A DNA stretch of 64,000 nucleotides from NCBI RefSeq assembly GCF_965641715.1, contig NZ_OZ282453.1. One strand, 5' to 3'. The first letter of the stretch is position 1; every line of letters begins with the position of its first letter. Shown here piece by piece: positions 59,247-59,687 of the stretch. The position numbers and the translations under genes are program-made. The notes under the pieces are model-generated. The model worked only from the letters and a program-made list of their open reading frames with translations, did no database searches and was not told the DNA's origin. This DNA is from Escherichia coli (GTDB lineage: Bacteria > Pseudomonadota > Gammaproteobacteria > Enterobacterales > Enterobacteriaceae).

Positions 59247-59687
59247 TATGACGCTGCTTGTTTAAAGCTGACTGGTTTTATTGGCATAGTTCAATAGTCA
59301 ACACCATGTATTATAACACAAGTTACTTTTTCACCGAAAAACTAATCCATTTAACCGAATATCTCTACAACTAATAGTTATAAATGCCACTTAACAGCGA
59401 GTTATAGTACCACTTGAAACTATATTGCCGACAATAGTTAATAGCTTTCTTAACAATTTTCTTATCTTTAATTTGTATTTTGCTAAGATTTATCTTATGC
59501 TCACAAGTCGTATTTCCAGAGGGGAATAGTTAACAATCTTATATTTCCCTCTGCGCGCCTTTCTCACCCGCTGTATATAGTGCAAGTGGTATGAGGAAAG
59601 GGAGATTTCACAAGGATGTTATACTCAAAGTAGACAATCCTGATCTCAAGCGTACGTATTGTCCATGCGATGAATAAAGGAAAAGTT

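Follow-up and report, generated by a model that had tools for sequence, protein, structure and literature searches.

What lies between cspH and gfcA is very probably the native regulatory region, without interruption, of gfcABCDE-etp-etk, the operon for group 4 capsule export, here as an EHEC-type variant. The window, that is the whole stretch of 64,000 nucleotides analysed, is Escherichia coli chromosome in the reverse orientation relative to K-12 MG1655, and spans roughly K-12 positions 1,094,245 to 1,045,432. Positions 59247-59687 are exactly the 441-bp spacer from the cspH stop codon to the gfcA start codon. The features of the locus are as follows.

58536-58748, minus strand: cspG, open reading frame.
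59034-59246, plus strand: cspH, 70 aa, the upstream neighbour; open reading frame collinear with K-12 cspH (b0989).
59247-59687, plus strand: cspH-gfcA intergenic region, 441 bp, very probably the native gfc upstream and leader region, uninterrupted in gapless alignments.
59655-59663, no strand assigned: unoccupied target of the K-12 IS1D, a single copy of CGTATTGTC, from the flank alignments and a count of the 9-mer.
59677-59681, plus strand: Shine-Dalgarno-like AAGGA, 6 nt before the gfcA ATG, read from the sequence.
59688-59993, plus strand: gfcA, 101 aa, full length; 99 of 101 residues identical to EPEC GfcA and 99 of 101 to K-12 GfcA.
60100-60744, plus strand: gfcB, 214 aa, full length; 213 of 214 residues as in EPEC.
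60741-61487, plus strand: gfcC, 248 aa, full length; 242 of 248 residues as in EPEC.
61487-63583, plus strand: gfcD, 698 aa, full length; 695 of 698 residues as in EPEC.
63629-64000, plus strand: 5′ part of gfcE, truncated where the window ends; residues 1-60 as in K-12 GfcE.

The genes lie in the order cspH-gfcA-gfcB-gfcC-gfcD-gfcE on a single strand, as in an intact gfc operon, and are collinear with the annotation of both K-12 and EPEC. GfcA to GfcD have the lengths found in EPEC and K-12, are free of internal stops, and share 97.6-99.6% of their residues with the functional proteins of EPEC. The window stops 372 bp into gfcE and covers neither the remainder of that gene nor etp, etk and the O-antigen genes on which a group 4 capsule depends.

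K-12 MG1655 has the same genes in the same order, with flanks 96-98% identical to the window and CGTATTGTC present; the difference is that IS1D and a second copy of the 9-mer are found only in K-12. In the MG1655 annotation IS1D is a 768-bp element with insA4 and insB4 at NC_000913.3 1049778-1050545. There gfcA (b0987) starts at 1049744, with IS1D 33 bp upstream of its ATG. Local blastn aligned window positions 58900-59663 with the cspH-side flank of K-12 (96.2%, gapless) and 59655-60100 with the gfcA-side flank (97.8%, gapless). The two alignments overlap by 9 bp, and the overlap is CGTATTGTC, which stands on both sides of IS1D in K-12, in keeping with a target duplication by IS1. Given its single copy, the site in the window is an empty target with no excision scar. 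Neither the 768-bp element, with its terminal repeats and insA/insB, nor a duplicated CGTATTGTC is present. When IS1D and one repeat copy are taken out of the K-12 sequence, the spacer aligns over 441 bp without an indel between the window, EPEC E2348/69, O157:H7 Z852, isolate DCE7 and K-12. The initial annotation had held that IS1 is missing from the cspH-gfcA interval, and alignment with the K-12 region confirms this: the 441 bp are gapless and CGTATTGTC occurs once, at 59655-59663. Comparison with EPEC, O157 and K-12 revealed no IS-derived segment or scar anywhere in 59247-59687.

A former insertion might nevertheless have left a remnant or scar that escaped these comparisons. We regard this as extremely improbable, since the spacer is 441 bp and indel-free against three independent lineages, the K-12 target 9-mer occurs once in the window, and matches to IS1 or IS3 and to the IS1 terminal repeats are absent. 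The nearest hint of such an event is a 23-bp deletion (59486-59508) in BL21(DE3), and that is in BL21 and not in the window. We note that the BL21(DE3) spacer is itself IS-free, that its deletion and the IS1 target duplication of strains ATCC 43886 and YJ6 (see below) share their first base, and that the deletion takes out the -10 element of the best-scoring promoter-like match in the spacer.

The absence of insertion sequences extends to the rest of the window. Of the 64 kb, 47.4 kb are collinear with K-12, and neither of the two IS copies that K-12 has in this region (IS1D and IS3D) is present. Searching the window with IS1D and IS3D (blastn, 7-base word) gave chance-level matches only, with E values of 0.04 or worse, and a fuzzy search for the IS1 terminal repeats gave no match at up to 6 mismatches. 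Three segments are absent from K-12. Their 19 listed open reading frames of at least 57 aa were compared with the Pfam profiles and partly with those of NCBIfam and PHROGs, and none contained a transposase domain. The statement of the initial annotation that no IS occurs anywhere in the window thus holds by blastn, by terminal-repeat search and by domain scans. The window does carry a mobile element, a recombinase-bearing phage remnant, though it is no insertion sequence. The three segments and the identified genes of the remnant are:

1-2473: segment with an EAL/CSS-motif gene.
15501-18036: 2.5-kb insert between efeU and putP.
30991-42532: 11.5-kb phage-remnant island at the 5′ end of wrbA.
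32597-33265: Dam-type methylase with HTH, in the island.
35348-35635: HNH endonuclease, in the island.
37735-39864: tape-measure protein, in the island.
40000-40794: Dit-like tail protein, in the island.
40814-42457, minus strand: large serine recombinase, in the island.

In the first of these segments a gene resembling EAL/CSS-motif phosphodiesterases (777-2387, minus strand) and a 163-aa open reading frame adjoin dgcT, where K-12 has IS3D. The 442-aa open reading frame at 16561-17889 in the second has only weak PipB2_N-like matches, together with PHROG matches of unknown function; nearby, efeU (14536-15375, minus strand) has an intact 279-aa frame and is a pseudogene in the K-12 MG1655 annotation. 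Beside the phage remnant the reading frame of wrbA stays open, with a changed N-terminus (42509-43114). Within the remnant a 236-aa open reading frame (36708-37418, plus strand) has a 62% identical homologue in strain ES5 that RefSeq labels 'transposase'. We rejected this frame as an IS transposase, as it has no support from Pfam, NCBIfam or PHROGs and its flanks are without IS-like inverted repeats. There are three Rfam matches at gathering level in the window, namely a cspA-type thermoregulator that corresponds to the cspG 5′ UTR (58482-58904, minus strand), naRNA4 at 47721-47799 (plus strand) and Ysr251 at 10670-10863 (plus strand).

The frequency of the uninterrupted state was counted in 5426 complete E. 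coli genomes, a stretch being taken as uninterrupted where at least 80% of it was found in one place. The spacer 59247-59687 is present in 3716 genomes and uninterrupted in 3480. A stretch centred on the K-12 insertion site (59447-59887) is present in 3689 and uninterrupted in 3146 (85%), while for the adjacent control stretch 58680-59120 the numbers are 5411 and 5383 (99.5%). A 60-bp probe for the junction of the K-12 flank with IS1D was covered in 414 of the 5426 genomes; among the carriers listed as examples laboratory derivatives are prominent, and field isolates such as TUM12357 (from chicken) and H112 occur as well. Most genomes that have the spacer have it uninterrupted, unlike K-12, so the state is not distinctive for the strain of the window. 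About one third of the genomes (about 1700 of 5426) are without the whole gfcABCDE-etp-etk locus. In these the match to the window ends at 59247, the breakpoint being immediately behind the stop codon of cspH, and cspH there adjoins appA and overlaps its 3′ end.

This agrees with what has been published. PMC2516531 (citing Peleg 2005) and PMC12428005 describe an IS1 in the promoter region of gfc (ymc) in K-12 that pathogenic strains lack. An IS-free gfc upstream region is already known to be the usual state in wild E. coli, the K-12 IS1 having been in print since Peleg et al. 2005.

The spacer belongs to the EHEC-type allele, as judged by its sequence. It has 3 differences in 444 positions from O157:H7 Z852, as against 27 base differences from EPEC E2348/69 and 27 differences from K-12, and positions 59447-59887 are 100% identical to O145 strain RM9872. 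Identity to the window spacer is at least 99% in 358 genomes and 90-95% in 3109 of 3716. GfcA and GfcB of the window are the same proteins as in the O157 annotation. The best complete-genome match to the wider 24-kb region, strain ES5, is only 98.7% identical, and the window is therefore not from a sequenced O157 clone. DSM 103246, which differs in carrying IS1 at the locus, is otherwise 99.6% identical across 58990-60100. EPEC O127:H6 E2348/69 also has an IS-free, indel-free 441-bp spacer, with GfcA to GfcD of equal lengths. Of the differences from EPEC, 21 lie in the distal 253 bp and 6 in the proximal 188 bp, with 1 in the last 100 bp; this distal concentration suggests that the functional elements are in the proximal part of the spacer. 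At the stop codon of cspH identity drops steeply; the cspG-cspH stretch (58680-59120) reaches at least 99% in 5375 records. The drop suggests that the gfc locus has a history separate from that of cspG-cspH.

The spacer is AT-rich, with a GC content of 34.9% and a trough of 28% at 59300-59499, compared with 47.5% for the whole window. A scan with the strict sigma-70 consensus found no site on the plus strand of the spacer. With a position weight matrix the best score was 8.3, while the median best score of shuffled sequences was 8.6, so that no match in the spacer beats shuffled sequence. Two elements of the proximal spacer are candidates:

59473-59501, plus strand: best sigma-70-like match, TTGTAT-17-TATGCT, a candidate from the weight-matrix scan.
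59517-59553, plus strand: 12-bp imperfect inverted repeat (59517-59528 and 59542-59553), from the fold and the sequence, in the conserved proximal spacer.

An extended -10-like sequence, TGTTATACT at 59617-59625, was read by eye and set aside, since it has no usable -35 and was unranked in the scan. Folding of 59500-59700 as RNA gave -56.1 kcal/mol, more stable than 200 shuffled sequences (z = -3.4), and the fold includes the inverted repeat as a 12-bp hairpin, which may act in the leader RNA or mark an operator or other protein-binding site. We rejected a leader controlled by RfaH through an ops (JUMPStart) element. The ops sequence GGCGGTAG has no match with 1 mismatch or fewer in 59247-59687, and the nearest ops-like sequence, with 1 mismatch, is inside gfcA at 59918. 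Rfam gave nothing in the spacer, the nearest match being the cspA-type thermoregulator of the cspG 5′ UTR.

Judged by this anatomy, transcription would probably start in the proximal 200 bp or so (about 59450-59650), which are conserved and AT-rich and lie upstream of 59655, and the transcript would reach gfcA by way of a structured leader. In K-12, IS1D would separate gfcA from all upstream sequence, sparing only the ribosome-binding site, and would also interpose a polar element; for these two reasons K-12 is regarded as having the capsule operon off. Because the strain of the window is without the IS1D block, we propose that expression of its operon is governed by ordinary regulation.

It is plausible from the sequence that the gfc operon is expressible in this strain, as the initial annotation had it. 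The absence of IS, the collinearity of the spacer with EPEC and the full-length GfcA to GfcD all favour this. EPEC has a functional operon and EHEC carries it too (PMC3853201; PMC3366997), and the capsule requires all seven genes (PMC3366997; PMC3853201). EPEC has high gfcA expression (PMC3853201), while in EHEC EDL933 gfcA mRNA was about 30-fold below the EPEC level and no capsule could be seen in N-minimal medium (PMC3853201). Since EDL933 has this low level despite its IS-free lineage, absence of the IS is necessary but not sufficient, and the claim is supported only in part.

The region might thus be intact and yet transcriptionally quiet, with low or transient activity of the AT-rich EHEC-type allele, in which case the absence of IS1 would say little about the capsule. 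We give this somewhat less than an even chance of being right. The spacer is much closer to that of Z852 (3 differences in 444 positions) than to that of EPEC (27), and EDL933, with its roughly 30-fold deficit in gfcA mRNA (PMC3853201), is of the same serotype as Z852. A GC content of 28-35% is typical of DNA silenced by nucleoid proteins, to which it may be linked here, and the scans of the spacer did not find a strong promoter consensus. By contrast, the export operon for group 4 capsule is described as active in both EPEC and EHEC, and the capsule as temporally regulated during infection (PMC3853201). One growth condition does not define expressibility. A quiet operon is in any case compatible with the anatomical conclusion that the region is intact.

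A different question is whether IS1 in K-12 rewires gfc rather than silencing it, through an outward promoter at the IS1 end or by disrupting silencing. The initial annotation had stated that an IS1 upstream of gfc silences the operon in K-12; the element is indeed there, and 'silences' is too simple, for etk-dependent phenotypes occur in K-12, and a positive effect of IS1 has been speculated upon by the authors who reported them (PMC2516531). As the K-12 operon is not completely silent, the contrast between IS-present and IS-absent strains is no clean off/on switch. RNA polymerase SELEX placed a promoter-like site directed towards gfcA, TGGAGA-18-TACACT, in the gfcA-insA4 spacer of K-12 (PMC3946193), and gfcA-insA4 is listed by RNA-seq as a pair of divergent overlapping transcripts (PMC12288877). 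Both are as rewiring would have it, and 5 of the 7 mapped IS1 events that leave gfcB intact (given below) share the K-12 orientation. However, IS1 has the opposite orientation in strain 61, FAM21845 and AL.H8, and several events delete gfcA outright, which resembles inactivation. We consider rewiring in K-12 unlikely overall. It concerns K-12 and not the window, where an intact native region is still the preferred reading.

When the interrupted alleles of other complete genomes were mapped onto window coordinates, at least nine independent IS events were found within 59318-60310. At five sites the insert is IS1, in one orientation or the other; an IS3-family element and ISKpn26 also occur, as do three IS1-associated deletions in which gfcA is lost:

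Event 1: IS1 (minus), duplication 59486-59494, in ATCC 43886 and YJ6.
Event 2: IS1 (minus), 59551-59560, in DSM 103246.
Event 3: IS1 (minus), 59655-59663, in K-12 and 2018-02-2CC.
Event 4: IS1 (minus), 59704-59712, within gfcA, in LR-24.
Event 5: IS1 (plus), 59633-59640, in strain 61.
Event 6: IS3-family element, 59523-59527, in strain 58-3.
Event 7: IS1 (minus) with a deletion, 59490-59973 lost, in CAVP880 and CUVET21-424.
Event 8: IS1 (plus) with a deletion, 59319-60038 lost, in FAM21845.
Event 9: ISKpn26 at 59342-59345 and IS1 (plus) with a deletion, 59496-60309 lost, in AL.H8.

By contrast, the neighbouring and similarly sized cspG-cspH stretch (58680-59120) is uninterrupted in 99.5% of genomes. 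The first six IS1-bearing loci to be mapped all had the K-12 orientation, a bias that hinted at selection for an outward promoter; as the main explanation it was abandoned on the opposite orientation and the gfcA deletions of later loci. Insertions of IS1 or IS5 activate the silent bglGFB operon, which likewise has an AT-rich regulatory region struck repeatedly by IS in other strains. The two systems differ in that the insertions activate bgl and are thought to inactivate gfc, and in that the window has no insertion. The stretch upstream of and including gfcA might be a recurrent evolutionary switch point, at which IS elements turn the capsule on and off; we put this forward tentatively and think it rather less probable than not. 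The clustering may instead come from a preference of IS1 for AT-rich DNA combined with clonal over-sampling of K-12.

We conclude that K-12 is a poor reference for the gfc locus, and that the absence of an IS alone is no predictor of capsule production. If the clustering of insertions does reflect selection to switch off or rewire the capsule, the strain of the window would be in the 'on-capable' state.
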